64,000 nucleotides of DNA from NCBI GenBank assembly GCA_044892525.1, contig CM097885.1, positions 31,126,001 through 31,190,000 on the forward strand. The letters run 5' to 3'. The notes beneath the pieces are model-generated. The model did no database searches and was not told the origin of the DNA. It saw nothing but the letters and a program-made list of their open reading frames with translations. The DNA comes from Schmidtea polychroa. Taxonomy: Eukaryota. This document shows positions 7,359-42,435 of this stretch, one piece after another (the first letter of the stretch is position 1; every line of letters begins with the position of its first letter). A program made the position numbers and the translations under genes.

Positions 7359-7430
7359 CTAAATTATATGATGCCATAATATTTTCATGCAGATAAAATT
7401 TTTAAATGATTCTTTTTTTTAGTTACTTAC

Positions 7431-8493
7431 ATTTGCAGACGTTGGCATTTTGTCTAGTTGCTCTTTGCCATGGTCGATCAAGATAATTAGATTTGCATCT
7501 TTCGCATTCTTGACCTTCGGTGTTGTGGTGACAGTCACACTTGATTTCATCGTTATCATCTATCAAACATCGATTAGCATGACCATTGCATTTGCATCGT
7601 CCACCAACAGCAAGATCTGACAAACCAAAATGAACAATCGGCTCAGTTTTATGGTTGACAAAACTTGGTGGTGCTTGTGGAAGTGATTCGGTATGATAAT
7701 ATAATTCTTTCAACCTATATGAAGTCGATTTTTCCGGTGTAAATCTCATCAAACTTATTCTCAAATCTGTCATTGTCATCCATTCAACTAAATCTTGACT
7801 CCATGGAGGTCCAGAGGGTCGACCATAAATTGTGCTAAATGGTAACACAGTTTCTGCTTGTCCATAATCATTGTATCGTTCAGGGGCTTTTAATTCAACA
7901 CACAGAACTTCATGAATGTTTGCAGGAGTGATTTGAGAGTTCTGTTCATTTGTTGTTGGCATTTTAAATGCCCTATAGCAATCTTGAGAAAAAAACTGCC
8001 AAGGTTTCCATGAAACCCCAAAATCTAAGCTTTTGTAAATTGCTATTGAATCTGGAAGTGTTCCACAGATTTGCAATGCAATATAATAAACTTCGAAGCT
8101 TTTCTTTAATGATACGGTGATATTGACTTCGTTTTGACCAGAATTTTCCTGTAATGGCCCAGAAAACCAACATGTTTGATTTTTTGGAATGTGTCGATCA
8201 GTTATGTGTGATGGCGGATATGAACGATGTTTTGCGTCGCAAATACTACAATATTGTCTGGCTTCTGTGGTTGTTTTGTCATACCAATTCCGGCAAATCT
8301 GTTCCGGTCCATTAGTACCACAGGTACTTGTAGTTTCAGCTTTAACGTTTTCAATAATATTTGTAAAAGACGGTAAACACTGTTGAGGTCTCCCGTTTAA
8401 ATAGCATGGTGAAGACTGAGATTCAAAAATAACTTTAACAGAATGAATCCACACTGATAAATTTAGAATTGCGATCGTTCTTATAAAAATCAT
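7431..8493 (-). CDS. netrin: Netrin coding exon 1 (signal peptide, laminin N-terminal domain VI, LE1)
   Basis: ATG at 8493 with hydrophobic leader; PCY..GRPQQCLPSF, PDSIAIYKSLDFGVSWKPWQFFS, LSDLAVGGRCKCNGHANRC, CHHNTEGQECERCK..YLDRPWQRAT; GTAAGT donor at 7430, 72-bp intron. Confidence 0.92.
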
Positions 8494-8552
8494 AACCAAA
8501 AAGAATCTGTATTCTTGAAGATATTAATTTTCATCTTATATCTACTCCGGCT

Positions 8553-12018: not shown

Positions 12019-12133
12019 AGTTATGATGTCTTCAACTTCTAAATTCATAAGATCAATAATAAATGCAGTTAAAATATATTTTTCAAAAAAACGCTAAAAA
12101 CAATATTATTAAAACAAACAACTTTCCATAACT
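12019..12133 (-). repeat. 3' LTR
   Basis: Direct repeat of 15333-15448, immediately after the polypurine tract. Confidence 0.93.
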
Positions 12134-12143
12134 CTCCCCTTCT

Positions 12144-12655
12144 TTAAGGAACTGCCCATCTCTTAAGCCATTCAATTCGTCTGAGTTTCTTTGTCGTCCA
12201 ATCACTCAATTCCACCTGGTGCTCTGACAAAAACTTTGATATGACAAAAGGACCTTCATACTGTAGTCCATCTTTGTCGCGATTTTGTGGTTCTTTCCGA
12301 ACTAATACTTTCTCCCCACCGTGAAACATCGATTCGTTCTCTTCTCTGTTTCCATCTCTTTCATTCGTTTAGCTGCTTTCTCACTGTTCTCTCTTACCAA
12401 TCTATGTATCTCAAATGTATCCAATGTCGTGTGAGGCAATGTTGAATGAAGGTTAATCTTCCTCCCAAAAACAATTTCAAATGGAGAAAATCCCGTCGCG
12501 CTCTGTTGTGTCACGTTGATACAAAATTCTACTCGAGGAAGTAACTCCGCCCAATTTCGCTCTCCTAGTCCACCTGCTAATGATGTTGCCAGCAAGTCTC
12601 TGACTGTCCGTATTGTTCTCTCAACTAAACCGTTAGATTGATGCTGATATGCTGA
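12144..12655 (-). pseudogene. Integrase C-terminal remnant, frameshifted
   Basis: SAYQHQSNGLVERTIRTVRDLL..NWAELLPRVEFCIN..QSATGFSPFEIVFG, then GEKVLVR..YEGPF (GPY/F motif) in another frame. Confidence 0.88.
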
Positions 12656-14190
12656 TACAAACTAGCGTCTGTATCCAGAATAAAGTTTCTATCCATTCTT
12701 GGGTAATCTAGAATTGGAGCTTCACACAACTTTGTTTTAAGTAATTCAAAACTATTGTTGCAATCTTCTGACCAATTAATCTTTTTCTCACAGCCGGATG
12801 TAGCTGCATGTAGAGGTTCCGCAATTTTCGCATAGTCTTTTATAAACTTCCTATAGTAATTGGTCATACCTAAAAAGGATCTTAATTGTTTAGCGCATAC
12901 TGTTATTTCTGCATCTTGAATCTCTTTAATCTTCTTGTCGTTCGTTTTTATCCCACTTGCACTTACAGTGTGCCCTAGGAATGTCAATTCTTCTTTATAC
13001 AGATTACATTTTTCTGGGTTAATTCTCAACCCCGCTAGTTGAATTCTTCTGAATACTTCCTCTAATCGGTTATTGTGTTCCTCTTTGTCTTTTCCATAGA
13101 CAAGAATGTCGTCGAGGTAGACAACAACACCCTTAAATAATATTCCATCCAACATTGAGTGTATCATTCTTTGAAACGTCGCAGGGGCGGTTGCTAGTCC
13201 AAAAGGAAGTCGGTTAAAACAAAACTGTCCTTGCCTTGTACTGAAAGCCGTGACCTCTTGAATTTCCTTCGCCATTCCAACTTGATAATATGCTTGACCT
13301 AGATCGATGGATGTGAAATATTTTGAATCTGCCAGACAATCCAGTAGAAATCGTGTATCTGGCATTGGAAAAGATATCTTTTCAGTGATCGCATTCAACC
13401 CTCTATAGTCGACACACATCCTTATTGATCCATCTTTCTTAGCCACAATCACTAGTGGCGCGTTCCATGCACTTTTGCATTTTCTAATAACTCTCGCTTC
13501 TAATAAGTTTGTGACAAGTTCGTCAAGCTTTTGTTCTAAATGCATTGGTTGTCTTCTTGGCTGTAACATTACAGGCCCACCTATTATATTCATTTCATGT
13601 TGAACAACTTTCGTAAACCCGAGATCAAACGTTGACGCCATAAAAATACCTTTGAACTTCCGTAGCAATATGTCTAACTGTTCATTCTTCCTGTCTCCAA
13701 GCATTAATAATGCTTTCTCTTCTCGTTGTGAGTCCACATATGTCCTCCCTACTTGTGATGCTTCAATATTGTCTACCTCTACCAGTCGAATACCAAATCT
13801 CTCCATTGTATCTACACCCCCAATGAAATCTGGACGTATATCTTTGACAACTATAACATTAATAATTCTTTTTTTCCCATTCCAATCAGCTTCTATCGTC
13901 ATTGCTCCTAACGGTCTTTCCATTCCCGTCGAAAATACTCCACAAAGAGAAATTGTGCTCTGCTTCAACCTCGGTTTCCCAATCTTTGTCCAACTTTTTT
14001 CACTCATAACTGATACTGACGCTCCAGAGTCCCAAAGCATGTCAATCGCCGTCATGTTTATTACAATCTTACTCCACTTTCTTCTGTCTGTCGTCTCATA
14101 CATCTTCTGCATCATGTCTTCATTTCGCTTCTTTCTACTGATTATTGTGTCGACCCCACTGACGAAATGAAAGCAATGGGATCGTCCTTG
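12625..14190 (-). CDS. pol: Gypsy pol (aspartic protease + reverse transcriptase + start of RNase H), truncated by deletion; expressed via -1 frameshift
   Basis: LWDSGASVS protease motif; RMCVDYRGLN, LPFGLATAPATFQ, YLDDIL RT motifs; FILDTDAS RNase H start, then a jump into integrase sequence. Confidence 0.9.
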   Translation of the reverse strand, partial: QGRSHCFHFVSGVDTIISRKKRNEDMMQKMYETTDRRKWSKIVINMTAIDMLWDSGASVSVMSEKSWTKIGKPRLKQSTISLCGVFSTGMERPLGAMTIEADWNGKKRIINVIVVKDIRPDFIGGVDTMERFGIRLVEVDNIEASQVGRTYVDSQREEKALLMLGDRKNEQLDILLRKFKGIFMASTFDLGFTKVVQHEMNIIGGPVMLQPRRQPMHLEQKLDELVTNLLEARVIRKCKSAWNAPLVIVAKKDGSIRMCVDYRGLNAITEKISFPMPDTRFLLDCLADSKYFTSIDLGQAYYQVGMAKEIQEVTAFSTRQGQFCFNRLPFGLATAPATFQRMIHSMLDGILFKGVVVYLDDILVYGKDKEEHNNRLEEVFRRIQLAGLRINPEKCNLYKEELTFLGHTVSASGIKTNDKKIKEIQDAEITVCAKQLRSFLGMTNYYRKFIKDYAKIAEPLHAATSGCEKKINWSEDCNNSFELLKTKLCEAPILDYPRMDRNFILDTDASLYQHISINLTV

Positions 14191-15362
14191 TTTTTTGGTT
14201 TATCCATTGATTTTTTTATCGTTTCTTCGTAATTACTGTAAAAATCTTCTGTGAAATCACCATTATTTCTTTCGTGATCTTCTTCGTAAATACATGCCAC
14301 TCTCTTCTGATATCCATTTCTATTTTTAAGCAAAAAACAATCTCTGAATCCATGACCTTGTTTTCCACAGATTAGACATTTGTCTTTCATAGGACATTCA
14401 AAACGCCGGTGCCCTTTTTCTCCACAACAAAAACACTGACCTGGTGTCAGTTTCACTGGATGAGGCGAATCTCTTCCTTTGCTGTTATTAAATAACCTTC
14501 TTGCAATATCTTTAAGCAATACTGTAGGTATTCTTCTCTCTGGTTCTCCTGTCTCATATCGTCCTCTATACCGCTCATTTTCATTCTTGTCTTCATTTAC
14601 AATTGGTACAAACCGACCATTACCAGGTCTATTCCTCTCATGATTAATCTCTCGGTGTTCGTCGCGTTGATGTGCAGTTGTCTTCACAATTGTTCTTTGG
14701 TCTCGTCTACCCTCGAATTTACCATTTTTCATCACTGATGCGTAAGAGTCTCTTCTTATGGCATCAATATTTAATTTATTGTCATTCGTCATCTCGATCT
14801 TCTCCTGAATTTTTACCATATCCCTGGCATCTTCAAAACTTGTCACTTTCCTTGATAAGAATATTTCTTTTACTCTATCGTCTTTCGCTCTGTTTGAAAT
14901 AATGTCTCGAACAAATACACTTTTAACTAAACTTCTTACTCGTATTTCGAAGACTTGGAATCTTTCATCTCTTTCTTGCTGAATTTGAGCTAGTTCCACA
15001 ATCTTGTTAGTAATGGTTTTCCTTACTGTAAAAGTTTCTATAAACCACTCTTTTGCCATTTCATCGGTCATCTTCGCTATTTTAGCCGCTTCCCATAACA
15101 TCGATGCCGCATCTGTCAACAAAAGATCCAATGCGTCTACTAGACTTTGATCTTCTATTCTCAGCCATTCCATAATATCCTTTAGCCAAAGTTCGGCTTC
15201 AGATCCAACTTTTCCGTCAAACTTTCTGACATTAAAATTTAGCATCTCACGTGCTTGTTTTGACAAGGAATCTAACATATTCTTGGTTCCTTTCTTTTTT
15301 CCTATCGCATTGATTTCCTTGGCGTGGTCGCCAGTTATGATGTCTTCAACTTCTAAATTCAT
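14142..15362 (-). CDS. gag: Gypsy gag with two CCHC zinc knuckles
   Basis: 406-aa ORF; CFCCGEKGHRRFEC and CLICGKQGHGFRDC. Confidence 0.9.
   Translation of the reverse strand: MNLEVEDIITGDHAKEINAIGKKKGTKNMLDSLSKQAREMLNFNVRKFDGKVGSEAELWLKDIMEWLRIEDQSLVDALDLLLTDAASMLWEAAKIAKMTDEMAKEWFIETFTVRKTITNKIVELAQIQQERDERFQVFEIRVRSLVKSVFVRDIISNRAKDDRVKEIFLSRKVTSFEDARDMVKIQEKIEMTNDNKLNIDAIRRDSYASVMKNGKFEGRRDQRTIVKTTAHQRDEHREINHERNRPGNGRFVPIVNEDKNENERYRGRYETGEPERRIPTVLLKDIARRLFNNSKGRDSPHPVKLTPGQCFCCGEKGHRRFECPMKDKCLICGKQGHGFRDCFLLKNRNGYQKRVACIYEEDHERNNGDFTEDFYSNYEETIKKSMDKPKNKDDPIAFISSVGSTQ
14151..14196 (-). promoter_or_regulatory. -1 programmed ribosomal frameshift signal (slippery heptamer + stem-loop)
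   Basis: A_AAA_AAC in the gag frame (14196-14190), 5-nt spacer, 11-bp stem CGAUCCCAUUG/CAGUGGGGUCG; the -1 frame is closed by TAA just upstream and open from here into pol. Confidence 0.8.
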
Positions 15363-15448
15363 AAGATCAATAATAAATGCAGTTAAAATATATTTTTCAA
15401 AAAAACGCTAAAAACAATATTATTAAAACAAACAACTTTTCCATAACA
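15333..15448 (-). repeat. 5' LTR
   Basis: Direct repeat of 12019-12133 (one extra T, different first base), abuts the PBS. Confidence 0.93.
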
Positions 15449-15751
15449 GTTCATTAATCAAATATTTATTGTTTGCTTTCTTTTGTAAATAATACCTTCT
15501 TGACATTTATAATGACAACTCACTGTTTTCAGTATTTGAGTTTACTGTTCATATCCATGCATATCCAATTTATGATGAAAAATTATATATTCTATATTGA
15601 TTCCTCTTGCTTCAAATATTTTGTTTTGTACAATTTCCGGAGCACAATTCAAAATATCATTTTTGATTTCTGGATAAATTTCATATATTTTATTAACAAG
15701 AATTTCTATTTGATAATCTGAACCTTTTTATTTCCATAGGTCACATTGAAA

Positions 15752-15960
15752 TTTGCGGCCTTCAAATGAGGCCGCAGTCAAAAAGTATTTCGTTTATATT
15801 TCGTTCTTTGTACTCGGCGGGATGCTTGTACAGTACGGTATATATACAATTCAGTAGTTACAAGCATTTTTATTTGTAAATCCTCAAAATTCATGGTTTT
15901 TTAATATAAATTAAGATTTATTTTGATAAGGCTCCGGAGGCCGCAGGTTCCCCACCTCTG
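15752..15960. mobile_element. hAT/Charlie-like terminal fragment
   Basis: GCGGCC subterminal motifs, end GGTTCCCCACCTCTG followed by ATCTAAAC (Charlie-type target); other end not found. Confidence 0.55.
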
Positions 15961-17254
15961 ATCTAAACATAAAAAAATATTAAATATGAAAATAGAATTT
16001 TTAACGATTCCCAAAAACTGAATCATTTTAAATAAAGTGATTGTTAAAGTTTATAATATTTATAGCTTTGATGGACCAACATTATTTCCAATTTTGATAA
16101 CAATTCAATAGTAATTATGAGATTTTTAACCAAGTGCGTCAATTTTCCAACTGAAAAATAAATATTCATACAACATTTTATAAGTTTCAAGCCAGGGAAT
16201 ATTTCTAGTTCAAATTTACATTTTGGTTTCCTTGACAAATATTGCAAGTTAGTTCTTTGTTTGATATCAATAGTAATTGAACATTATTGAAGAAGAGCAT
16301 ATCTTTATTATAATGTATGCTTTGAAGAGATTTCTTACAACCCATTATTCGACATTTCCCTGTCTTGAAAAATGATAAACTGGTTTAAATCATGTGCTCC
16401 TTTTTAGTATTTTTCATATTTAAGATTTGAAATAATGATAAGTTTTAGGTTTTATACAGGCACTGTTTCATATACACACATCTCTTATTTGATTTGAACA
16501 TTTATTCTAGCAACTAACAGATATCAAAAAGATATCAAAATCAAATATATTTTATTCGTGTCTACCTTCAGTATATTTAAACGAAGAATTCGGCCCAGAA
16601 TTATCGAGACGAGGAAAAGAAAGTATTCTAGACGAACTATACGAAAGTATTACCGAAAATACTTAATTAAGGTTTTTTCTTCTTGAATTTTAATAAAAGT
16701 TGAAAACTTTATTCGTTAGTTATATTTCATTCTTATTTTGTAATTATTTTAGTATTTTTACCAGTCAGGTTGGATAAAGCAATACATACAAGTATCCCGA
16801 CGGTCCCGCCACATATTTTTACTGGACACTCTTTCGGGCTCTACACATTCTCTTCACATACCAAGTTACAAAATAGTCGTGAAAACTTCACAAAATTAAC
16901 ATATCCTATAGCCATATCACTTTCACCAACCGACAAAGAACTAACGATTAATTAATAATAATAAGACCACAACAAGACCACGATAAATAATAAATAACTG
17001 ACAACTATAAGATAACCTAATAACATTCAAATTTCAAATTTCAAAAATATATTTTCACAATAAATTTTTCAATAAATAAAGGAATCACTTTTTTATTAAT
17101 ATACTATTCATTTATCTTAGTTTATTTTGAAATCAAAATTCATGATGCGATATTGATAATAATAAGTAGATTGATTGGAGCTCCCCAGGCCAGGAGCTCC
17201 CCCGGCCACATATACCCCCTCCCCCCCCGGGAAAATTTTTTTTTAAATAAAAAG

Positions 17255-18085
17255 TCAAGGTCATTTATTTATTTTTTTTTTAATTTAATTTTTTGTTTTA
17301 ATTAATTGGGCGGGCGGGCTCACACTTTTTTTTTTTTAATGTTCCTGCCAACAGATTTTATTGGACGATAGCTCATCTTAAAGCCCAATGCAAGACCTTT
17401 CGAATGAGCTATTGAAGGTATCATCATCATTAACATCGGCAAAGTTATTAACGTTTTCCCGAGACCATTTTTCAAGGTCATTTATTATTTTCAAGGTCAA
17501 ATTTTTAAATAAAAGGTCAAGGTCAAGGTCATTTATTTTCTCAAGGTCATTTATTATTTTCAAGGTCATTTATTTTTTCAAGGTCATTTAATTTTAATTA
17601 TGTGGCCGGGAGGGCTCACACTTTTTTTCATCCAAAAAATTAATGTTCCCACCAACAGATTTTATTGGACGATACCTTATTTTAAAGCTCTGTGCAAGAC
17701 CTTTCTAATGAGATATAGATTTCTATCATACAATGACTCATCACATTTTTAGAACAAAGACAATGACTCATTCGTTGTCTCATCATATTTTTAGAACGAT
17801 GACTCATCAAGGTCAAGGTCAAATTTTTAATAAAAGGTCAAGGTCATTTATTATTTTCAAGGTCATTTATTTTTTCAAGGTCATTTAATTTTTAAATAAA
17901 AGGTCAAGGTCAAATTTTTAAATAAAAGGTCAAGGTCAAATTTTTAAATAAAAGGTCCAGGTCCAGGTCATTTATTATTTTCAAGGTCATTTATTATTTT
18001 CAAGGTCATTTTATTTTTTCAAGGTCATTTATTTTTTCAAGGTAATTTAATTTTTCAAGGTCATTTATTTTTTCAAGGTCATTTA
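17255..18085 (+). repeat. Subterminal tandem array of TCAAGGTCA-containing units (about 18-19 bp)
   Basis: About 20 copies of TCAAGGTCA, most followed by TTTATT(A)TTTT. Confidence 0.9.
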
Positions 18086-18574
18086 TTATTATTATTATTA
18101 TAATTATTATTATTATTATTATTATATATAATCTATCCGACAAAATATTCTGTCCCACTATGGGTATTGCTCACCAGGGTACTACTCACACTCAACAAGT
18201 CTCAAAGGGTATAATATAATTATTATTAAATTCTGACCAACTTAAAACAATGAAGGGGTAGAACAAAAATATATTACGTTGCGATATTTTAAATTTAAAA
18301 ATATTTTAAAAACTTATTTTGACACTAAAGTTTAGTTAATTAACAAAGACATAATTATTGCACATACTTTGCATAAATATTATTATTTTTTAAATTTTCA
18401 ATATTTTCTTTTAAAGTATTAACATGCGCGGGAGTTATTATTATTATTATTATTATTATTGTTAATGAAAAATCTAAAATATGGTTTACACACACAACCC
18501 CTCAACCATTATTATTATTATCAATATTAAAAACCTAAAATATTTTCTACACACACACACACAACCCATTAAAC

Positions 18575-18670
<96 letters not shown>

Positions 18671-18784
18671 GTTAATGAAAAATCTAAAATATGGTTTACA
18701 CACACAACCCCTCAACCATTATTATTATTATCAATATTAAAAACCTAAAATATTTTCAACACACACACACACAACCCATTAAAC

Positions 18785-18834
<50 letters not shown>

Positions 18835-19124
18835 CATGTATTTTTAGAACGATGACTCATTCGATGACTCATACGATGACTCATAAATTATTATTATTTT
18901 CAAAAATATTATTAAGTGGTCTGGCGGGCTCCTGGTATTCGTTTGCTCAAAACTTAATGTTCCCACCAACAGATTTATCTACTGATATATAAATATTATT
19001 ATCATATATACTCTTATTCTATCCGACAAAATATTCTGTCCCCCTATGGGTAATGGTCACAAGGGTACTACTCACACTCAATATGTCGTAAATTATTATT
19101 ATTATTATTTCAAATACAAGTTCA

Positions 19125-19191
<67 letters not shown>

Positions 19192-19449
19192 GCAAATATT
19201 AGTCAAAAACATAAAAACACACACTCAACCAATTAACAATTATTATTATCAATATTATTATTATTGCAAATACTAGTCAAAAACTTAAAATTTTTTTTTT
19301 TACACACACACAACCCATTAACAATTATTATTATCAATATTAGTGAAAACCTAAAATATTTTCTACACACACACACAAAACCCATTAAACTTTATTATTA
19401 TCATTATTATTATTATAATTATTATTATTATTAGTGAAAAAACCTTAAA

Positions 19450-21067
19450 TAATTTTTACACACTAAGTTATGGGGTAGAGTATTATTATGTTTGCAGTAT
19501 TCTGTGTTTGCCTTCACAGGAAGTTGTCAATAAGGAGCGATAATTTTACACACACATTCTATATACACATACCTTGTTTAACATGGGTGTATATACTCCT
19601 AGTCTATCCGACAAAATATTCTGTCCCCCTATGGGTATTGCTCACAAAGGTACTACTCACATTCAATATATCGCAAGGGTATATTAATTAAGGTTAGTAA
19701 ATAAAACTTATCACACACACTATTTAAACGATAAAAATCAAGACAAGAGAGGACAAGGCAAAGTTTATGCGTTTAGTATTGCCAGGCCTAATGAGCAGTG
19801 ACCAAATATCTGTGCCTGAAAGACACGGTGGATATTTGTTCGCGTCCACAAGGGTCGTCTGTGCCTTCCCCAAGTGGGGTCAGAAGAACCTGGGCATTAT
19901 AGCTTTCCGTACGGAACATTACGCCTAGCATGGGTAGTCAACTACCAGTACATTCGAAACGTATAATTTCAAAATACATGCGTCATTGGCACTATAACCA
20001 AATTAATTAATGTTTTCACTAACACAAATATATATTTACAGAGGCCTCCCACTAGTTGGATTACAACCGCCCACCACGACGATCAGCTTGTAAATATATA
20101 TTAATTAAGGGATAAAGAGGACCCACCCAACCCTATTATATTTAATTTACAAATTTTTCTCGCTCTTCTGCTGGTATTCTATCTCAAAATTATCATCTCC
20201 ATCGGGCCATTTGGAATACATGTTGCAAATTGGACGTATTTCTTAGTCTCTGATGCGGTGTCAACTATCATTGCTAATATTTATATTGATTTAAAAGCAA
20301 TTAACTTACATTATCTAGCATTTTATCGTCACAGGCTTGATAAATTAGGCAACTGTTATTTGTGGTATACTTTTTCAATGTCATTTCCCACCATAAAACA
20401 CAGATACCTAAATATAAAATATATATATATATATATTTTAAAGAATTAATTCATGTCTTACATTAATAATAATATTCTTCAGGTAGTACTTTACAATATC
20501 TAATTGCTAAAACATCGGTTTTTCCCATTTTTCTTGACATTCGTTGAAAGTTTACATAATTTAAGTCTGATAATTCATGTTGAAGGACACCCACAATCAG
20601 CTAATTCATTTAAGAAATCCAGAACATAGCAATGTTTCACCATTTTGTCTGGTTCATTTTCTTCTATAATTCATGTTTTAATAAGAAATTTCTAAATCCA
20701 GAACATAAGTCATTTAGTGTTTCACCATTTTATCTGGTTCATCTTCTTCATAATTATATAATTCATTTTCTTCATTACTAAGTAAAATAATTAAAATATT
20801 GTAGTAAATTCTTTATTTACTTACTTTATGGATACTAAAACGAAAGAAATAAAGTTATATCAAAAGTATATTTAAATAATTTAAATTTAAATAATTTAAA
20901 TTTAGTTATTTAAAAATATTTAAACAATTTAGTTATTTAAGCATATTTAAACATTAACATTATTATATAGTATAATTTTATGTATTCTAAATTTATTAAT
21001 AAATATAGTATAATTTTATATAATTTTATGTACACTTATATATCCTTCATTTAATTTTTTAAATTCA
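19450..21067. repeat. Left inner arm of a near-identical ~1.6-kb inverted repeat
   Basis: Reverse complement of about 24397-26020; ORFs 19488-19691(+) and 25775-25978(-) are nearly the same peptide. Confidence 0.93.
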
Positions 21068-22092
21068 GTACCAATTGTGAGCAGTACCCATAGAGGGAGA
21101 AAATATCTTGTCGGATAAACTCAGAGTATATATAATAAAACGAATTAACAATAACTCCATCAAATTGAATCAGTCAAATTAACACAAATTTTGATAAAAA
21201 ATCTTATTCTAAAATGTTAAGAAGCGTAAAGTCGAAAGATAATTTTAATAACACCGAGATAAATTAACAATATTATTCTCAGGTGGTAAGAATCTTCATT
21301 AAAGTGAAATGAAATATTTAGTGTAAAATAGTAAATTTAATAATAATTGCTAATATTAAAGGACTTAATCAAAATTTAAAATATGAATTTATCATAATTA
21401 CTCTGTCAAATACCCTTCACGGTTTCTTATGTAAGAAAATAATCATTTGGGGATTAAATACTTTATTAAATAAAAGTTTATCGCATTATTAAAATATTTT
21501 AATTCGTGAGTAGCTCATATAATAGAAATAATTTTATTTATATATCCTCATCACTTATAGCCGCCGATTCTCGATTTCCCAATAATTATTATCATTTAAA
21601 TTCTCCGGGCAAATATTTCTTTTAAAATTGTATTAAATATTTTTTTATTAAAGTGAACGTTTTTATGAATTTTTATGAAATTTATGAATTTTATGAAATA
21701 ATTTTAAATAATTACAATTAATATATATCCATGCCACTTCTCTGTATGTTTTCATTGACCTTCCATAATCCAATAATGAATAATTCTAACACTTATTTTA
21801 ACCCCTTTGAAGTTTATTATAATTTTATGACAGAATAATAAATAATTTCCTCACTTTAATGAAGATTCTTACCACCTGAGAATAATATTGTTAATTTATC
21901 TCGGTGTTATTAAAATTATCTTTCGACTTTACGCTTCTTAACATTTTAGAATAAGATTTTTTATCAAAATTTGTGTTAATTTGACTGATTCAATTTGATG
22001 GAGTTATTGTTAATTCGTTTTATTATATATACTCTGAGTTTATCCGACAAGATATTTTCTCCCTCTATGGGTACTGCTCACAATTGGTACTG
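21066..22092. repeat. Nested inverted repeat, arms about 21066-21307 and 21851-22092
   Basis: CAGTACCAATTGTGAGCAG...CTTCATTAAAGTGA versus its near-exact reverse complement, about 540-bp spacer. Confidence 0.92.
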
Positions 22093-24396
22093 CTCGTAAG
22101 GGTACTGGTCGTAAAGGTACTGGTGTGTTTTAATGATTTTATTTAGGCAAATTTTTGGTTATTATTTAGCATTAAATTCATTGGTAATTTTTAGAGTTAG
22201 CGGGATTTTACTAACATTATTACTAACCTTTTTGTGAATAATTGAAAGAATATTTTGAAATTTAACGTTTTAGTGTTAATTCTAAGACAAATTTAATTAA
22301 TTTCTTGATAATTTGCTATATTTTATTGACTTGTTTTTAAATTTACTTTTAAATAAAAATTATTTTTAATGACAGTTAGGTTAATAATTAGAGTTTTTAC
22401 AATAATCAAGTGATTATTATTTTATTTTTGTAAAAATTATTGTAAAATATACTGAAATTTGTGATTTTGAAAGATATATCACGTTATAATTGCTATATAA
22501 TTAGTTGAATCGATGAAGAATTATGATCAATCAATATATTTCATCTCTAGTTAGGTATTTGATGGTAAATGTGGTGAAATATTTGTAGAAAATATTGATT
22601 TTAGTGAATTTTGATCTTTTAGTGGGCTCTTACTACATGAATTTAGATACTAAATTATTTCAATGGAAGGATGTCTGTAACAATTAAATAAAATTCATAT
22701 TTTGAAGAATTTTCTATGGATTTTAAGAGAATTGATATATTAAAGGTCTGATATATTAAAGTCGGTTGGTTAAGATGGTAATATATGTTTTTTAAGGGGG
22801 TGTTTAAAATGATAGAAATATTTGGTGAGGGATCGGTTAAGGTGGAAATGTTTGAAATCTCTATTTAAATCGACAATGTTCTTATTGGTAAAATTTTAAA
22901 GGGAAATAGTCAGTATTTAGCTATGAATTAATAATAGTTCCTGTGAAATTATATCGTTTTAGAGGTTTATTAGGTTGTGATGAATGTTATTGCACAGTAA
23001 TTTAGATTTATGTTTTAGAACCAGTTTTTTATTAATTATCCACTGTTTTATTAAGTCGTTTAGGGTTAATGATCAATTTACTTGGTTTTCACAATGAAAT
23101 ATTTGAAATCTTTAGAATTAATTGGGATTGATATCAAAGGTTATTGCTTTAAATTATTTACTTAAGAAGTTATTTTATTCATTGTGGGGACATCAGTGAC
23201 AAAACTTGAGAAATATTGACTTAAAAGTTGGAAATCAACAACAGCTAAAGAAAGTTGATCTTTATTGAAGGAATTTTATGATTTTAATTAGATTTCTAGA
23301 AATTAAATCGGTTGAATATTAAAGGTAAAATCTATTGAAGGAATATTATTATCGGATGGATAAATCTTTCAATGATATTTTGCTAAATTACCTTTGCTAA
23401 ATATTATTTTAAATGACTAAAAATAACAAAATTAACCAATATTCATAAATTTATCGCACAAAATATCCATGTTTTGGTTACTCAAACATCTTAAATTTCT
23501 CGCAAAGATATATTACGTCTAATGATCATCTAATTAAATTAGAAAATAATTGTTACTTTATAATATATATTTCTAACTAATAAGCCCCTTAATTGGATAA
23601 ATGATAACCATATTTCTATTATGACTCCTTTAATTATTTTTGCCTCAAACAAATTTACTCCAAATGATAAAGAATTTAAAATTATCAATGAATAAAGACC
23701 ATGTTTTCTCATATTATTAACTATTGTAACGAACATTAGATGAATAAATTAATTTTTGCTTTAAATGACTACAAAGTTAACCAATAAATTAGTCGCTTGA
23801 CATAAGTGTAAAGTTACATTTAAAATATTCACAAATTTCTGATTATCTTACCTAAGAATTTCTAAATGAATAATATACCCTTGTGACATGTTGATTGTGA
23901 CCAGTACCCTTGCTAGCAATACCCATAGGGGGACAGAATATTTTGTCAGATAAACTAGGAGTATATGGTCTTTATTGATATATCAAAATACTGTTATTTA
24001 TAAATCAACTAAAAATACTCAAAAATACTATATTATTTTACTGAATGATACCTTAAATGTTTTTAATATACATATTTCTAAAATAAATCAACAGTTCAAA
24101 CCAACAACATGTATGCAAGACCACCCATTGTTAATTTATTTCCAGTGTCACGTCCCTCAAAAATACCGTGAGTGTTTTACCAAAGCTGAGCTAAAAGAAA
24201 CTTTCCAGATAACAACTCACCTGAATGTTTTGAACAAAAATGAGCGAAATTGAGAACAAACGATTAGATGGCGATTAACTTCTGGCCACAACCCTAACAA
24301 CATGAAAATTAAGATTTTAATTATTGAATTCGTTTTTTTCTGTCTGGAAATACTAACAGAATATTTTTTAATTCAAAGAATCTTCATTATAAATTT

Positions 24397-26020
24397 TTGA
24401 ATTTAAAAAATTAAATGAAGGATATATAAGTGTACATAAAATTATATAAAATTATACTATATTTATTAATAAATTTAGAATACATAAAATTATACTATAT
24501 AATAATGTTAATGTTTAAATATGCTTAAATAACTAAATTGTTTAAATATTTTTAAATAACTAAATTTAAATTATTTAAATTTAAATTATTTAAATATACT
24601 TTTGATATAACTTTATTTCTTTCGTTTTAGTATCCATAAAGTAAGTAAATAAAGAATTTACTACAATATTTTAATTATTTTACTTAGTAATGAAGAAAAT
24701 GAATTATATAATTATGAAGAAGATGAACCAGATAAAATGGTGAAACACTAAATGACTTATGTTCTGGATTTAGAAATTTCTTATTAAAACATGAATTATA
24801 GATGAAAATGAACCAGACAAAATGGTGAAACATTGCTATGTTCTGGATTTCTTAAATGAATTAGCTGATTGTGGGTGTCCTTCAACATGAATTATCAGAC
24901 TTAAATTATGTAAACTTTCAACGAATGTCAAGAAAAATGGGAAAAACCGATGTTTTAGCAATTAGATATTGTAAAGTACTACCTGAAGAATATTATTATT
25001 AATGTAAGACATGAATTAATTCTTTAAAATATATATATATATATTATATTTAGGTATCTGTGTTTTATGGTGGGAAATGACATTGAAAAAGTATACCACA
25101 AATAACAGTTGCCTAATTTATCAAGCCTGTGACGATAAAATGCTAGATAATGTAAGTTAATTGCTTTTAAATCAATATAAATTTTAGCAATGATAGTTGA
25201 CACCGCATCAGAGACTAAGAAATATGTCCAATTTGCAAGATGTATTCCAAATGGCCCGATGGAGATGATAATTTTGAGATAGAATACCAGCAGAAGAGCG
25301 AGAAAAATTTGTAAATTAAATATAATAGGGTTGGGTGGGTCCTTTTTATCCCTTAATTAATATATATTTACAAGCTGATCGTCGTGGTGGGCGGTTGTAA
25401 TCCAACTAGTGGGAGGCCTCTGTAAATATATATTTGTGTTAGTGAAAACATTAATTAATTTGGTTATAGTGCCAATGACGCATGTATTTTGAAATTATAC
25501 GTTTCGAATGTACTGGTAGTTGACTACCCATGCTAGGCGTAATGTTCCGTACGGAAAGCTATAATGCCCAGGTTCTTCTGACCCCACTTGGGGAAGGCAC
25601 AGACGACCCTTGTGGACGCGAACAAATATCCACCGTGTCTTTCAGGCACAGATATTTGGTCACTGCTCATTAGGCCTGGCAATACTAAACGCATAAACTT
25701 TGCCTTGTCCTCTCTTGTCTTGATTTTTTTCGTTTAAATATTAAAGTATGTGTGATAGGTTTTATTTACTAACCTTAATTAATATACCCTTGCGATATGT
25801 TGAATGTGAGTAGTACCTTTGTGAGCAATACCCATAGGGGGACAGAATATTTTGTCGGATAGACTAGGAGTATATACACCCATGTTAAACAAGGTATGTG
25901 TATATAGAATGTGTGTGTAAAATTATCGCTCCTTATTGACAACTTCATGTAAAGGCAAACACAGAATATTGCAAACATATAATAATTCTCTACCCCATAA
26001 CTTAGTGTGTAAAAATTATT
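24397..26020. repeat. Right inner arm of the ~1.6-kb inverted repeat
   Basis: Reverse complement of about 19450-21067 with few substitutions. Confidence 0.93.
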
Positions 26021-26211
26021 TTAGGTTTTTGACTAATTATAATAATAATTATAATAATAATAATAATATTAATAATAATAATACTAATAATAATAAAGTT
26101 TAATGGGTTGTGTGTGTGTAAAAAATATTTTAGGTTTTTCGCTAATATTGATAATAATAATTGTTAATGGGTTGTGTGTGTGTGTAAAAATATTTTAGGT
26201 TTTTAATATTG

Positions 26212-26276
<65 letters not shown>

Positions 26277-26386
26277 GTTTAATGGGTCGTGTAAAAATAA
26301 TTTAGGTTTTTCACTAATATTTGCGTTAATAATAATAAAGTTTAATGGGTTGTGTATCTATGTGTAAAAAATATTTTAGGTTTTTC

Positions 26387-26463
<77 letters not shown>

Positions 26464-26780
26464 GTTTAATGAGTTGTATGTGTGTGTAAAAATATTTTAG
26501 GTTTTTAATATTTACAATAATAATTGTTAATGGGTTGTGCATGTGTGTGTGTGTAAAAAATATTTTAGGTTTTTCAATAATAATAATAACTCCCGCGCGT
26601 GTTACTTTGAAATAATAAGGTATGTGTATATAGAATGTGTGTGTGTGTGGGGACAGAATATCTTGTCGGATAAACTCGGATTATATAATAATAATAATTA
26701 TAATAATAATAATAATAATAATCAACGATTTAAACAAAAATAAATTAATATGTAATCGATAATTAAAACAAAAATTATTA

Positions 26781-27120
26781 GTTCTAAAATTAAGAGGCAC
26801 CATTCTAAAAATAAGAGGCGCCATTCTAAAAATATTAGGCATTGTTCTAAAAATATTAGGCACCATTCTAAAAATATTTGGCATCGTTCTAAAAATATTA
26901 GGCATCGTTCTGAAAATATGACGTAATCATTCTAAAAATATTAGGCATCATTCTAAAAATATTAGACATCGTTCTAAAAATATTAGGCATCGTTCTAAAA
27001 TTATGACGTAATCATTCTAAAAATATTAGGCATCATTCTAAAATATTAGACATCGTTCTAAAAGTATGAGGCATCGTTCTAAAAGTATGAGGCATCGTTC
27101 TAAAAATGTGATGAGTCATC
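26781..27120 (+). repeat. 21-bp minisatellite (TTCTAAAAATATTAGGCATCG-like), with a related cluster at 27480-27597
   Basis: Directly visible tandem units; gives the MPNIFRT repeat ORF. Confidence 0.9.
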
Positions 27121-27713
27121 GTATGATAAAAATCTATATCTCATTAGAAAGTTCTTGCACAGAGCTTTAAAATAAGCTATCGATCAATATAATATGTTGG
27201 CGGGAACATTAATCTTTGAGATGAAAAAAAGTAGGAGCCCGCTGGGCCAATTAATAATATTTTGACAAATAATAATAATTTAACTTTGAAAAGATGGTGG
27301 TCATTAAATGTTAATAACATTAAAACTATTAAAGATATATAAGATACCTATAGCACATCTTAAAGGTCCTGCACTGGGCTTTAAGATGAGGTATCGTCCA
27401 ATAAAATCTGTTGGCGGGAACATTAATCTTTGGGATGACAAAAAGTAGGAGCCCGCTGGGCCACTAATAATATGGCTTCGTTCTAAAAATATGTGGCGTC
27501 GATTACGTAATAGTTCTAAAAATATGTGGCATCGTTCTAAAAATATGTGGCATCGATTATGTAATAGTTCTAAAAATATGTGGCATCGTTCTAAAAAAAA
27601 ATTTTTTATCGGGGGGGTGGGGGAGGGGGTATGTGTCGCGGCGGGCTCCTGTTCTGGGGAGCCCCAATCCTACTACTATAATTCTAACAAATGTACGTGA
27701 TAATACACTATGG

Positions 27714-30786: not shown

Positions 30787-30829
30787 TATTCACCTTTGCT
30801 TCATCCTGGTCAATAAAACTACAAGCTAT

Positions 30830-31895
30830 CGCGGCCATGTCATGGACTAGATGATACCTATTCTGAAGGGAGAAAGTGACGTTCAACTGTGGATTCAGAA
30901 AGTAAAGCTAGTGGAAAATATTCAAAACTCGTGGAGTTGGAATCAATAATTCCTTTATAATTCTTTATAATTCCTCAATAATTCCAGCTTTTGAAGTATA
31001 TCAGCATTTGAGCGCGGAGGACCAGGACACACATTGAAAATCGAACATGCCATAATCGATGTCTATTCAATAGATATTTTTCAAGCATATGACCGATTCC
31101 GTGAAGGAAAGTGGTGCAATGAGCCAATCGATGTCTATTTGAATGATCTCAAAAACTTAGCATCTTTGACCAAGATAGATAACGAGGTCATACCTAAAAG
31201 CTCATTCGTCATGGGTTTTCCAGCAGTGTCGTCACAACAGTTACGATCCAATGCCAAGATTTAGCAGATGTCTCTTGTTGAGGTCTTGAAACAGTCCCGT
31301 GTTTTAGTAAACTGTGACAGTATGGAACTATGTTCGGCTGTCGTGGGAAAACAAGACAAGCAAAAGAAATGCTTGTATTGCGGAGAGAATGGCCCTCTAG
31401 AAGTACGTTGTTTCAAGAAACAAGGAATGAAGTGTTGGCTACGTGAGTAAGTAAAAAAAATAAAGTAAGTGAACAAAGGAAAAGTTCGTCCGGTAACTAA
31501 ATAAATATGTTAGTAGTCATACTGAATAAAGTGACGTATATGGTGAATAATTAAGGTGATGGCGAATGATGGACGAACAGGTTATGTTAATTAATCTTAA
31601 AAATGCCAATCTTCAGATCCATGTTGATGAAGACCTATGGGAGCACCGAAGGGTTAATCACAAAGGGGATGGATACTTTCTAACGAGACTCGGTTTTGGT
31701 TTAAATGTGGCTCCGAAAATAATGTCAACAATATTACGAAAGTTACTGAGTTTAAGAGAAGACATCAAGAAAGCAACGGATAGTTATGTTGATGACATTA
31801 TTGTCAACCAGTCAAAAATAAATGTCAATGAAGTAATTAACCATTTAGCAGCATACGGGCTAACTACAAAGAGTTTGATGATGCAAGACTGCTAG
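30830..31895 (+). pseudogene. Degenerate Gypsy-like gag/RT fragment; mirror copy at about 38520-39560 (-)
   Basis: Gag-like EPIDVYLNDLKNLA..SSFVMG, knuckle relic CLYCGENG, RT YFLTRLGFGLNVAPKIM..DSYVDDII. Confidence 0.8.
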
Positions 31896-32145
31896 GTCTC
31901 CAGCTTTAAACAAGTATTAACTGTCGTACGTGGCATAAACGTTTTTTAATTATAAAATTATTTTGGAAGTCGTGTTAGATCGAATAAATCGTGCAAAAAA
32001 GGAGTAATTGTTCTTTTTCTGGACCGTGTTATTTCGAAATTGTGTAAAAAAGAGTTGAGTGTATTCACCTTTGCTTCATTCTAATTTAAATTAATGTCAT
32101 CATTTTGATGCATTTAATAAATAAAAATGTTATTTATATTATTAA

Positions 32146-33866
32146 TAGGGCAACCCAAAAGTTGCAAAAAAAAGTTGCAAAAAAGCTTAAAAAGTTGCAA
32201 AAGTTGCAATAAAAGCTGACTATAAAATAATATTAAATTTTTTATTATTTACTACAAAATATAAATATAAAATCATTAAAGTAGAATTCCTTTGTAAACG
32301 GGAAAACAAGCAAAAATTCTTGATAATTCTTTGGTCTAATGTTTCGGATCAAATTGTTTTTATTCATCAACTGAATTGAAATAGCAGATAAAGTAATACG
32401 GAATATTATTTCCGTTATAATTCCTGTCCTCTCTTAACATTCTTTTCAGCATTGAAAAGCTCCTTTCCACGTCAATTGACGTTGGCTGGCAATTTTTTAA
32501 CTGAGAATATGTTGCTGGCGAAATTTTGTCGTTAGACAACTCCAAAATGTTGTTTAAGTCGTTTTTAAACATTCTTTCCTGAATATAAGATTTCAAATTA
32601 CAAGGGTCGTCTTTGAAGTCGAATTCATTTATTCTTTTAAATGCACTTTCAATTGAATGTTTTGAATCTTCAAGCTCATCAGCCAATACAACTAACCCCC
32701 TGTAACAATTAAATATTTCTTCCAACTCTTTTGTTATCGTTTCTTTAAAAATAGCCGTTTTCGCATTTTCGATCAATATTCCCTTTTGAGTTATTTCCTT
32801 GAAATGTAATTTTATTTCTGGCAGTATTTTAGAATAAATTAATGCAGCGCCAAGCCAACTTGACCATCGTGTTACAATAACATCTGGAATATTGCCTGCC
32901 TTAGAAAGAATTCTTTTATTTTCTTTATTTTTTGCCGTTATTGACTTAATCGCAGAAATCATATTATCAGCATCTTTGTAGTGAATTTTTAACCGCATTG
33001 CACAATTATGAATTAGGTGCGCAATACATTTAATTGAGAAAAGGTTTGGATGCACGATTTTTAAATGATCGGCTGCTTTTCGCATGTAGCTAGCATCGTC
33101 GCTTAACGATTGCAAAAATTGTTTACTTTCAATTTCAAGAATATCAAATGTTTCATTTATAATGTTGACTACAATTTGGTGGGTTATCGGAGCTTTCAGG
33201 TGTATTAAATTGGCCGCGTAAACAATTTTAGGAGATTCGATTGTTCCTATTAATACCATGGCGTATTTTTCTAAGTTGATTGAAGTTTCATCCACAACTA
33301 GAAATATTTCTTTGTTTTTGACATAATCTTTCAATTTATTCAAAACTGCTGGGTATGTATTTTGAATAATGTATCTTCGCATACTCGATTCAGATGGAAG
33401 TGGATAGGTCATGAAATTAAAGAGCCTTTTGAGACTATTATTTCGTAGTTTGTGAAGCGGCAGGTCGATTGATATTAACGCGGTTGTTAATATTTCAAGA
33501 AATTCCCTCTTCTTCACGCTTATAAAGTCTTGTTTAGCGGGTTCTTCGCTATTTAATTGGGATAATAAGGTGGAATGCTTAAGACTTCTTCGGTGCTTTT
33601 CAATCGTATATTTTCTTTTGTGGTCGACTGTTTTAGAACACAGATTGCAGTACAACTGATCGTTTGGGGCCATTACAAACTCCTTATTGTATAATGCACA
33701 GTATTTTCTAATGTTCGAATTATTTTTCATGGTAAAAAAAATTAAAAATCTATATATGAATATATAATTTTTAAATCAAAAAATCTATATATGAATATGT
33801 AATTTTTAAATCAAAAAATTTCCAAAAAAAGTCAAAAGTTGCAAAAAGTTGCAATGGGTTGCCCTA
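32146..33866 (-). mobile_element. Full-length compact hAT transposon (1721 bp)
   Basis: 11-bp TIR TAGGGCAACCC / GGGTTGCCCTA, AAGTTGCAA subterminal repeats, 8-bp TSD ATTATTAA (32138-32145, 33867-33874); empty site in the mirror arm near 38275-38295. Confidence 0.95.
32360..33730 (-). CDS. Intact hAT-family transposase (CGGBP1-like N-terminal C2H2 finger)
   Basis: 456 aa; LYCNLC...KHRRSLKH finger, VVDETS, SDDASYM, CIAH (CxxH), TRWSSW, PTSIDVERSFS. Confidence 0.88.
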   Translation of the reverse strand: MKNNSNIRKYCALYNKEFVMAPNDQLYCNLCSKTVDHKRKYTIEKHRRSLKHSTLLSQLNSEEPAKQDFISVKKREFLEILTTALISIDLPLHKLRNNSLKRLFNFMTYPLPSESSMRRYIIQNTYPAVLNKLKDYVKNKEIFLVVDETSINLEKYAMVLIGTIESPKIVYAANLIHLKAPITHQIVVNIINETFDILEIESKQFLQSLSDDASYMRKAADHLKIVHPNLFSIKCIAHLIHNCAMRLKIHYKDADNMISAIKSITAKNKENKRILSKAGNIPDVIVTRWSSWLGAALIYSKILPEIKLHFKEITQKGILIENAKTAIFKETITKELEEIFNCYRGLVVLADELEDSKHSIESAFKRINEFDFKDDPCNLKSYIQERMFKNDLNNILELSNDKISPATYSQLKNCQPTSIDVERSFSMLKRMLREDRNYNGNNIPYYFICYFNSVDE

Positions 33867-34710
33867 ATTATTAATTTATAAAACAATAAAATGATAATTT
33901 AAGCCTTTTGCAGCGAATAATGTTTTGAATGAAAAGATTTTCGACTATAAGATAGTCCTTGTCAATCTATTAATATAGTTCATCGATATTTTTTACAATA
34001 AATGTAACGCATTTATCTAACGAATAACTTTATGAAATTTTCGACAATGCACTTCGTTTTATCTCTTCAACGGATGGTTTTTATGTAAATATGTGGCGGC
34101 TGTGTAAGATGTAAGACTCAAAATGAAAAAAATATTAAAAAAATACTATTAATTTACCATGTTTGTGAGATCATGTAATATTTACACTGGAAATCCACAT
34201 TCAATTAGAAATTTCAATTTTCATTCAGATTTTGGCCAAGTTGCAAATTTATTTTTTCGGCATTTCTACAAATCAAATCTGTAACATTTGGTTATTATAT
34301 AATCAACAGTTGGTAAGTCAGGAACCCATTGCAAATCCTGTAGAATTATGGTAATGTTGATTGAGAACTTTATTTTTCAGTTGACTTTTTTAATGGATTT
34401 ATTTTTTTTTCTTATATATTCAATTAATATTTATTTACAGAGACATTTCTTATTGATGATTTTGGTTGCAATGAATCTCGTGTTGATGGAAGGCTCATCA
34501 CGTTGTAAGTTGTTAAATACATCATTACGCATTAATTATTTATTAGGTAATACACTTAGTCCTGAATTGTGTGGAGAATGTTGTCCATCAAAAAAATGTT
34601 ACTACGAACCCTATAAACGAGGAATCATGAAGTTTTACAATTTTGTATGCGCTTAACATGCAAAAACGAATTATCAGTTAATTTGAAATCATGATTTATT
34701 TTCAAATAAA

Positions 34711-35190
34711 TTAAAACTCAGACTTTTCTCCTAAGTTTGATAACCAGAATTTATTAAAGTCACTTAACATTAATGAGTTTTTTCTTCTAATGCATTCGTG
34801 CTCTATTGCCTTAAACTTCATGTATATAGCGTATATTTTCCAATATTTTGATAAATTTTCTGTCAATTCGGTTATAAATGACTGATATGATTCATTTTTA
34901 AAAGAGACAATAATAATTTGTGAATGGATTGGCCCATCTTTGGATATTGCCAAAACTAGAGAAATATTGGGATCTCTATTTGTTGGCAAATTACTATAAA
35001 TTCTATTGCCTATTCGTGATTTACCGAATCTCTTTTTCGTCCATGTATTGAAAGAGCATTTACCTTATTAAGTGTATGTATATTTCATATAAAATAATGA
35101 TGATGACATTATGCGTACACGTTCCTTGTTAACGATATATGTTCTTGTTAATCATTCGCTATCTTTGTTAACCAAGCACTGTCACTGTGC
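34711..35190 (-). pseudogene. Tc1/IS630-like transposase fragment; mirror copy at about 37070-37550 (+)
   Basis: TWTKKRFGKSRIG..PTNRGPNISLVLAISKDGPIHSQII resembles the region after the first catalytic D, as in the DD34E ORFs at 53833 and 57648. Confidence 0.6.
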
Positions 35191-35251
35191 ACAAAATGCA
35201 TTTCTTATGAAAATAATTAGTAGTGTGCGATATTTAGGGCACAAAAATAGA

Positions 35252-40817: not shown

Positions 40818-41601
40818 CTGATTCAAAAAATTATTTATATAATGGCGAAATAGAGCTTAAAATCATTGAAAAAATCTCAGCATTAATTGGAGAACAGGCT
40901 GCATGGTTAAGTTAATAAATATGTCATATTAACTCGAAATTAAATTAAATTTTAACCAGCATTTAGATCAAGATCAGAATTTAATAAAAATCGTTTTAAT
41001 ATTCAAGTGGTAAAGCGCAGTTTTTGTTGTGGAATAAATTTTTATCGAGAAATTAACTCAGCTTAATAATTTTACAAAAATGCATTTGTTGATAACAATT
41101 AATAATCTTAAACAAGTAAATGACAATATAAGCCTTTTGCTGTAAAATATATATTGAATAAAATTTAAAAACTTTCGATTATTAAATATTTAAATACTTA
41201 AATAAACACGGTAAAGATTTTATTAATAAAAATCGCCATTCGTACATCTTTTTCACTATATATTTCGATAGCATCACTATCATCATCAGGTTACCTACAT
41301 TCACTACGGATGAATAATTATACTATATTGATAATATATAAACAAATTATAAAATCTATAAATTTTTTAAATTATAAATAACAATTTTAAACAATTATTT
41401 TTAAAATTAATTTTCAACAATCAATTATTTTAAACTTTTAAAATTATTTAAAAATTTTATTTTAATTATTTTTTTAATTATTTAACAACTATTATTCAAT
41501 ATACATCAACATACAAAAATTTAATTAAAAACATTCAACACACACGTATTCACTGCATTCTGCACATTGATTTTAGGATTAAAAGTTCTTATCAATAATG
41601 C

Positions 41602-41807
41602 TTCACATATCACACGCTCAAAACAATTATCATAATTTTTTGATAATATTTTAAAATCCGACATTCCTAATTCTCTCATACATAATTTATTATGATCTAT
41701 AATAAATCATTAGATCATAATAAAGTCTGTATGAGAGAATTAGGAATGTCGGATTTATTATAATATCAAAAAATTTTGATAATTGTTTTGAGCGTGTGAT
41801 ATGTGAA
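41602..41807. repeat. Inverted repeat (arms about 80 bp) in CIAO1 intron 2
   Basis: TTCACATATCACACGCTCAAAACAATTATC...CTCTCATACA versus its reverse complement at 41728-41807. Confidence 0.88.
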
Positions 41808-42435
41808 ACATAATTGAGATATAGAACCGCTAGTATCACATGTGATACAGAATTGCTCGTATCATATGTGACACATAATTGATACATAATTGCTCGTATC
41901 ACATATAATACATAATTGCTTGTATCGTACGTGACACATAATTGAGACATATAACTGCTTGTATCATATATGACACGTAATTGAGAGATATAATTGCTTG
42001 TATCATATATTATACATAATTGAGACAAATCACTGCTTGTATCATATATGATACATAATTGAGATATATAATAGCTTGTATCACATGTGACACATAATTG
42101 TGATATATAACTGCTTGTATCATATATGATACATAATTGAGACATATAATTGCTTGTATCATATATGATACATAATTGAGATATATAACAGCGTGTATCA
42201 TATGTGATACATAATTGAGACAAATCACTGCTTGTATCATATATGATACATAATTGAGATATATAACAGCGTGTATCATATGTGATACATAATTGAGACA
42301 AATCACTGCTTGTATCATATATGATACATAATTGAGACATATAAATGTTTGTATCACATATGATACATAATTGAGACATATAATAGCTTGTATCATATGT
42401 GATACATAAATGAGATATATAACTGCTTGTATGAG
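41800..42435. repeat. 39-bp minisatellite, about 16 units, in CIAO1 intron 2
   Basis: Unit TGATACATAATTGAGAYATATAACTGCTTGTATCATATR; explains the 13-aa repeat ORFs. Confidence 0.93.

Follow-up and report, generated by a model that had tools for sequence, protein, structure and literature searches.

Introduction

Polinton/Maverick elements duplicate six base pairs of target DNA upon insertion and carry (AG)3 or (AGT)2 ends, as described in PMC8097293, and it is the possession of a polymerase and an integrase that defines them (PMC5499653). Models of their replication have hitherto rested on sequence: the proposed intermediate is single-stranded and racket-shaped, its ends pair and act as the origin, and short terminal repeats serve protein priming (PMC4196379). 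DNA/Maverick elements are reported as expanded in Dugesia (10.64898/2025.12.11.693146); in the comparative genome paper on Schmidtea (PMC11410931) the words Maverick, Polinton and palindrome are absent from the main text. Here we describe a 10,513-bp element (positions 17165-27677) in a window of 64,000 nucleotides from Schmidtea polychroa (assembly GCA_044892525.1, contig CM097885.1, positions 31,126,001 to 31,190,000 of the forward strand; coordinates below count from the first base of this window). The element is gene-less, has Polinton-type ends and forms one long palindrome whose arms are most alike at the centre and least alike at the ends. Our literature search, whose searched set left out most subscription journals and Repbase, found no paper on gene-less palindromic Polintons.

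Results

A gene-less element with Polinton-type ends

AGTAG opens the element at 17165 and CTACTACT closes it at 27677. The left and right termini align in register, with 11 of the first 14 bases equal, and terminal inverted repeats (TIRs) are present in the form of homologous ends with 82-86% identity. Measured against the (AG)3 or (AGT)2 motif of PMC8097293, the left end begins AGTAGA and the right end carries (AGT)2. The flanking six-mers, ATAATA and ATAATT, are alike at five of six positions, and a match of this quality to the left six-mer has a chance of 2.4% (1272 of the 53476 six-mers outside the element). Since the ATA-periodic flank also gives 3-bp and 7/9 matches, the duplication alone is modest evidence. 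An original prediction, made from the letters of the window, had proposed AGTAG/CTACT termini, a near 6-bp duplication, and outer ends that are homologous but clearly diverged; all three were borne out, the second as a candidate duplication and the last by 48 substitutions in 324 aligned bases (82.5-86.4% identity). Both termini (17165-17260 and 27590-27677) also keep, despite their substitutions, a short GC hairpin that starts about 13 bases in (z -1.8 and -2.7).

The prediction further held that no polB, integrase or capsid open reading frame (ORF) is recognisable, and this too stands. The element contains 56 stop-to-stop frames of at least 50 amino acids, the longest of which (121 amino acids) lies inside a minisatellite. 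For comparison with Pfam we translated 17165-24420 and 25900-27677 in six frames, giving 30 translations in which stops were written as X; the region 24420-25900 was covered through its mirror copy only. No Pfam family passed the cut-off in these frames: 18 frames searched at E <=1 gave one match (E 0.3) and 12 frames searched at E <=0.01 gave none. As a control, ORFs from the flanks gave matches to reverse transcriptase (RT), DDE_3 and kinase families. The 30 frames held no pPolB, RVE integrase, ATPase, protease or capsid gene, although heavily frameshifted relics could escape such a scan, and no transposase relic. As polymerase and integrase define the Polinton family and both are absent here, the element is not itself a Polinton and is like a non-autonomous derivative. 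A stretch with a Helitron-helicase-like look (20221-20670, minus strand) was rejected, with no matches among 1.84 billion representative proteins.

These ends bear on the alternative that the element is a fold-back derivative of a cut-and-paste transposon (Galileo, Foldback (FB) or Mutator-like) with no relation to Polintons, homogenised in the chromosome by gene conversion from arm to arm. Long, internally repetitive, gene-less arms are typical of such transposons, conversion could favour the centre, and at 30800-39587 the window contains another long palindrome that is interrupted and lacks AGTAG ends. We nonetheless regard this origin as quite improbable. A Galileo-type duplication of 7 bp is matched at three of seven positions and one of 8 bp at one of eight, while the 7/9 match of the flanks is explained by their ATA period; in addition, the AGTAG/(AGT)2 termini resemble the Maverick motif and the translated frames lack a transposase relic.

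The element is one palindrome with a deletion in its left arm

When 19430-21340 was aligned with the reverse complement of 21820-26060, the two halves were separated by a single large gap of about 2.3 kb, from ~24399 to 22093. At this point the left arm passes directly from the mirror of 24398 to the mirror of 22092, with CA common to both at the join. The palindrome spans nearly the whole length of the element, except for the 2.3-kb gap and the diverged ends. The element is thus one palindrome around a 518-bp loop, the left arm of which is missing a 2.3-kb block, and it is this loss that gives a false appearance of nesting: the second inverted repeat that the original prediction had placed inside the first (21066-21320 and 21839-22092) is part of the same palindrome. 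The outer arms also differ in length, the left one being ~640 bp longer than the right.

The direction of this change can be read from a module of ~90 bp, here called M, which occurs in eight copies in the element (18129, 19005, 19586, 21067, 22026, 23871, 25766 and 26649). The copy at 22026 runs intact across 22092, and the mirror of this copy, at 21067-21132, is truncated where the sequences join. The left arm has therefore lost the block; insertion of the block into the right arm was rejected on this ground. Four gene calls in the European Nucleotide Archive (ENA) match 23877-24427 at 89-93% amino acid identity, and one of them, P0121, crosses 24397/24398 just as the right arm does, supporting the right arm as the undeleted form. 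Because the four calls translate TGA as W and run through a frameshift, we take them to be other copies of the element's DNA rather than a gene. A 99-residue frame at 23954-24250 was rejected as a gene, its sole cluster being the same four calls. With regard to the modules themselves, GATAAAC (in four) or GATAGAC (in two) stands ahead of a GAGTATAT-like tail and no gene follows; folding of the modules was no better than that of shuffled sequences (z 0.2-1.1).

Arm identity declines outward in steps

Identity between the arms declines outward from the loop in steps, opposite to the usual TIR element. The innermost pair is identical at 240 of 240 bases, and the inner arms that follow (19741-21067 against 24398-25720) differ by 5 substitutions in 1323 bases (99.6%). 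The next block outward (19437-19740) has 10 substitutions in 304 bases (96.7%; p 2e-5 against the inner arm), and a microsatellite block beyond it has 10 in 172 (94.2%, in a less certain alignment). Outermost, identity falls to 85.9% in the U2 block, 86.4% in U1 and 82.5% in the terminus. Taken together, these three non-repeat outer blocks contain 48 substitutions in 324 bases, against 5 in 1563 for the inner arms (Fisher p 1e-32). Inner arms of ~1.6 kb that are almost identical, as originally described, are therefore present, but the two-state contrast drawn between them and the ends gives way to a gradient.

In adenovirus panhandles, one end is repaired from the other. The suggestion that the interior was homogenised by panhandle replication appears doubtful for this element. 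Since the ends pair in the racket model, simple panhandle copying should equalise them and leave them at least as alike as the interior, yet the ends are the least alike part of the element; such copying does not alone explain a uniform interior together with unlike ends.

The subterminal regions differ in their main repeats. Perfect copies of TCAAGGTCA number 20 in the left array and one in the rest of the window, whereas the right end carries a 21-bp repeat in 15.5 copies (26781-27107); the right array counts 20 TTTTAGAA-type units. The idea that each end has a different minisatellite thus holds for the main units, which are distinct, though not exclusively, as the TTTTAGAA unit of the right end also occurs three times at the left. 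The block order (terminus, U1, U2) is common to both ends, and long, internally repetitive TIRs of this kind are a Galileo- or Foldback-like trait. Several of the subterminal repeats (17255-18087, 18849-18885 and 26919-27560) resemble what we take to be sites for host factors, namely NR5A/ERR for TCAAGGTCA, AP-1 for TGACTCA, and the cAMP response element (CRE)/PAR-bZIP type for TGACGTAA and TTACGTAA.

The gradient also bears on a version of the Polinton-dependent element in which the unlike ends are fixed in the family: a parent Polinton with imperfect left and right ends would have had one interior duplicated by one copy-back event that preserved both ends, with no chimera involved. The common block order fits this version, as does the abundance of both end types in sequencing runs (see below), and Galileo TIRs are described as having been extended by copying of internal sequence (PMC3573991). 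One copy-back, however, would leave one identity step, and four or five levels are observed, the 96.7% block being set off from the inner arm at the p value given above. We therefore consider a fixed asymmetry unlikely.

Sequencing contigs bear on the insertion site

To 19450-24400, 24 sequencing runs were listed, 20 of which (from 8 studies) hold part of this region and six (from 2 studies) half or more; runs with shares below 0.2 were not used, and no RNA run was among those listed. The highest share was that of a run here called X1, which holds 0.88 of 514 sampled words. X1 record 8 covers 16951-17197 at a depth of 318, within the range of neighbouring flank contigs (290-318). As this contig spans 17164/17165 at the depth of the flank, the left junction exists. 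A dip in depth at 17269-17335 was not used, reads being cut at repeats there.

A contig from another study behaves differently. In X5 record 24, which has a depth of 33 against 18-31 for flank contigs, the first 200 letters match 16972-17164, so that the match ends on the base before AGTAG, and 54 further letters follow, themselves unread. An empty site with a 6-bp duplication is predicted to contain 30 unique bases before the hAT-like repeat at 27714, with a contig break within 30 bases of it, and a length of 54 fits this prediction. A match that ends at 17164 is compatible with duplications of 4-7 bp and not with 0, 2, 3, 8 or 9, and only 6 bp matches both sides. From the end of the match and the length of the overhang, the insertion site is probably empty in the animals of the X5 study.

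These contigs weigh against two other accounts of the locus. Two insertions might have been joined by later ectopic recombination or inversion, in which case the flanks would come from different sites and their 5/6 match would be due to chance. Galileo provides a precedent, with chimeras that have two diverged TIRs and non-matching flanks making up 12 of 170 copies (PMC3573991), and the duplication here is imperfect, with a chance of 2.4% for one test. In both its length and its first letter, the overhang of X5 record 24 nevertheless agrees with the right flank, and the left junction stands at flank depth in X1, leaving a joined origin improbable. It is very improbable that the structure is an artefact of assembly, in which fold-back reads were joined or repeats collapsed. 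Microsatellites and inverted arms that are nearly perfect do assemble poorly, and our evidence consists of contigs, with no read that spans the whole; against this, there are fixed differences between the arms, the loop occurs once, the ends are unlike, the left junction lies within an X1 contig, and the region is held by X1 and, by half or more, by six of the listed runs from two studies.

The terminus sequence is very abundant. Summed depth at 17202-17268 was 798777 in X1, 10117 in X3, 18432 in X5 and 0 in X7, which is not a copy number; nor is the ratio to single flank contigs, which reached hundreds to thousands in three of the four runs. At 17400, the consensus of the loose ends of 22 X1 contigs is the same as the U1 variant that the window has at the right end of the element, which indicates that both types of end are common. 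Viral contigs scanned by pattern for the M module and for the terminus gave no matches to either. The only metagenome match to a U block (L001) was rejected as chance, 24 bases being alike in unrelated DNA of 40% GC.

RNA-like segments and neighbouring features

The features of the element are collected in Table 1. Each arm contains a segment that resembles the head of metazoan signal recognition particle (SRP) RNA in Rfam, below the gathering score, of which ~47 bases align confidently. A 359-base RNA from the SRP head to a T run gave z -0.76, so that a long structured RNA is unsupported. No tRNA genes were found in the search, and PhrS and the other Rfam matches, at E 0.25 or worse, were set aside as chance.

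Table 1. Coordinates of the features of the element and of its flanking six-mers within the window.
Feature	Position	Strand	Comparison or score
Candidate target-site duplication, left copy ATAATA	17159-17164	+	5/6 match to 27678-27683
Left terminus: AGTAG start, short GC hairpin, C run	17165-17246	+	82.5% to right terminus
Left subterminal region: two ~130-200-bp U blocks (17306-17460, 17600-17800) among 20 TCAAGGTCA repeats	17255-18087	+	U2 85.9% to right partner
Left outer arm: two ~90-bp M modules (18129, 19005), (ATT)n/(AC)n blocks with 210-bp duplication, TGACTCA repeats, partial third U block	18129-19435	+	
Left inner arm, M module at 19586	19437-21067	+	96.7% (19437-19740) and 99.6% (19741-21067) to right arm
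7SL/SRP RNA 5' (Alu-domain) look-alike, left	19989-20087	-	RF00017, 29.6 bits, gathering score 70
Deletion junction in left arm; 2-bp CA microhomology; truncates an M module	21066-21067	.	
Innermost left arm (nested repeat of the original prediction)	21066-21320	+	240/240 identical to 21853-22092
Unpaired loop, 518 bp, palindrome centre	21321-21838	.	Without other match in window
Innermost right arm, M module continuing intact beyond 22092	21839-22092	-	
Right-arm block without left partner, 2305 bp, M module at 23871-23966	22093-24397	.	
Right inner arm	24398-26031	-	
7SL/SRP RNA 5' look-alike, right	25374-25420	+	E 6e-6 in 501-base search; 25374-25472 at 29.6 bits
Right outer arm: (AAT)n/(GT)n blocks, truncated M module (26649-26687)	26032-26730	-	
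Right subterminal region: 21-bp and 54-bp repeats, two U blocks (27090-27262, 27324-27468)	26781-27597	-	
Right terminus, minus-strand (AGT)2 start	27592-27677	-	Alignment to left terminus
Candidate target-site duplication, right copy ATAATT	27678-27683	+	5/6 match to left copy

The window as a whole is AT-rich. To the left of the element lie a netrin exon (7423-8523; 86% to Dugesia japonica netrin, 99% to another entry, next matches at most 53%), which marks the host as a dugesiid planarian, and a Gypsy remnant with gag, protease and RT (12019-15447) between 115-bp direct repeats that are 99% alike. Both flanks contain fragments that we take, from their ends, to be hAT-like (~15720-15975 and from 27714), with the left fragment reaching very high abundance in the runs. 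In the second interrupted palindrome (30800-39587) the arms are 93-98% alike, and the left arm carries a ~1.7-kb element with short inverted ends of its own and a DUF659 transposase-like ORF (32360-33775, minus strand). Further to the right, a 226-bp self-palindrome followed by a 39-bp satellite lies between WD40 exons (41592-42464), a Tc1-like transposase ORF is found at 53828-57430, and a 118-bp satellite and a further inverted-repeat structure lie at 59894-60521 and 62209-63393. The same 14-mer, starting with AGTAG, occurs at 53828 (plus strand) and 56874 (minus strand) and is probably unrelated to the termini of the element.

Discussion

We consider it probable that the locus arose when one fold-back element inserted here, gene-less, non-autonomous, dependent on Polinton/Maverick enzymes and with ends from different subfamilies. 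The flanks and contigs demonstrate in part that everything between 17164 and 27678 arrived together, accompanied by a 6-bp duplication, and Polinton enzymes would have moved it, to judge from this one copy. Much of the original view of a defective, satellite-like Polinton derivative is retained, as the element is gene-less, with Polinton-type termini, a probable 6-bp duplication, abundant ends and a probable empty site; the nested palindromes are not.

Under this reading, the protein-primed polymerase of a helper Polinton would start at the AGTAG ends, the displaced strand would fold back on itself, and the helper's integrase would insert it. The mismatch of ~15% between the ends would predate the insertion, which looks recent: if the site is polymorphic, such a difference cannot have built up in place. 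Instead, recombination or template switching with a sister subfamily most probably supplied the outer part of one arm before insertion. Several rounds of such exchange could have left the identity steps along the arm, the several levels of identity suggesting more than one exchange.

Several points weigh against a single Polinton-dependent insertion. With regard to the ends, the duplication is imperfect and lies in ATA-rich DNA where a perfect 3-bp ATA duplication is also present, and the left end starts with AGTAGA rather than (AGT)2. Neither the Pfam frames nor the search of representative proteins yielded a Polinton coding relic. With regard to the contigs, the window may itself derive from X1, the contigs of four runs were placed on 15460-17465, that is, on the left junction only, and their placement rests on 32 of 14535 pieces and 24 of 749 loose ends listed. 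X5 record 24 includes 7 gap letters of unplaced position besides its 54 unread letters, X3 had no junction piece among those listed, and X7 covered 9 of 30 bins.

A broader idea, which we offer tentatively and do not hold to be likely, is that the copy belongs to a recombining population of gene-less snap-back Polinton satellites, comparable to defective interfering viral genomes. Subfamilies would swap outer arms before integration, helper polymerase and integrase would accept ends 15% apart, and the arms would be equalised from the loop outward, with the arrays (TCAAGGTCA, TGACTCA and TGACGTAA) acting as interchangeable cassettes for host factors. If so, the copy would be a natural record of the copying of Polinton DNA. 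What this copy adds is an identity gradient and mismatched ends; near-identical inner arms combined with unlike ends put to the test the racket model, which predicts matching ends. Gene-based annotation would overlook such elements or label them wrongly.

Comparison with known systems

Miniature inverted-repeat transposable elements are hundreds of bases long, and the element described here measures 10.5 kb. The 'N' elements of Repbase are non-autonomous Polintons. Snap-back defective viral genomes (PMC13506859; for adeno-associated virus, PMC8235507) are described as near full-length palindromes that keep the replication ends and depend on a helper, features that the element would share; unlike them, it is integrated, inherited and probably multi-copy, its ends differ, and its parent and helper are hypothetical. 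The Galileo and Foldback-like elements of Drosophila, as presented in PMC3573991, resemble it in having copies that lack genes and consist of long inverted arms with internal repeats, extension of the TIRs, and chimeras of two subfamilies. Galileo differs in its P-superfamily transposase, its 7-bp duplication, its TIRs of up to ~1.3 kb, and the non-matching flanks of its chimeras. Polinton-type ends without a polymerase are likewise reported for the polB-less mobile polintons of butterflies (10.1101/2025.02.07.637071) and for Tlr1 (PMC5499653), which keep genes, whereas the element here is gene-less and palindromic.

In comparison with Polintons/Mavericks themselves (PMC8097293, PMC10748475 and PMC4196379), the element lacks pPolB, integrase, ATPase, protease and capsid genes, its arms fill nearly all of its length, its ends are just 82-86% alike, and it measures 10.5 kb against the 13-25 kb given for Polintons in PMC10748475. 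It shares with them, as these sources describe the group, AG/AGT-type termini with a short terminal repeat, a probable 6-bp duplication and long inverted ends, and it resides in a host group with expanded Mavericks.

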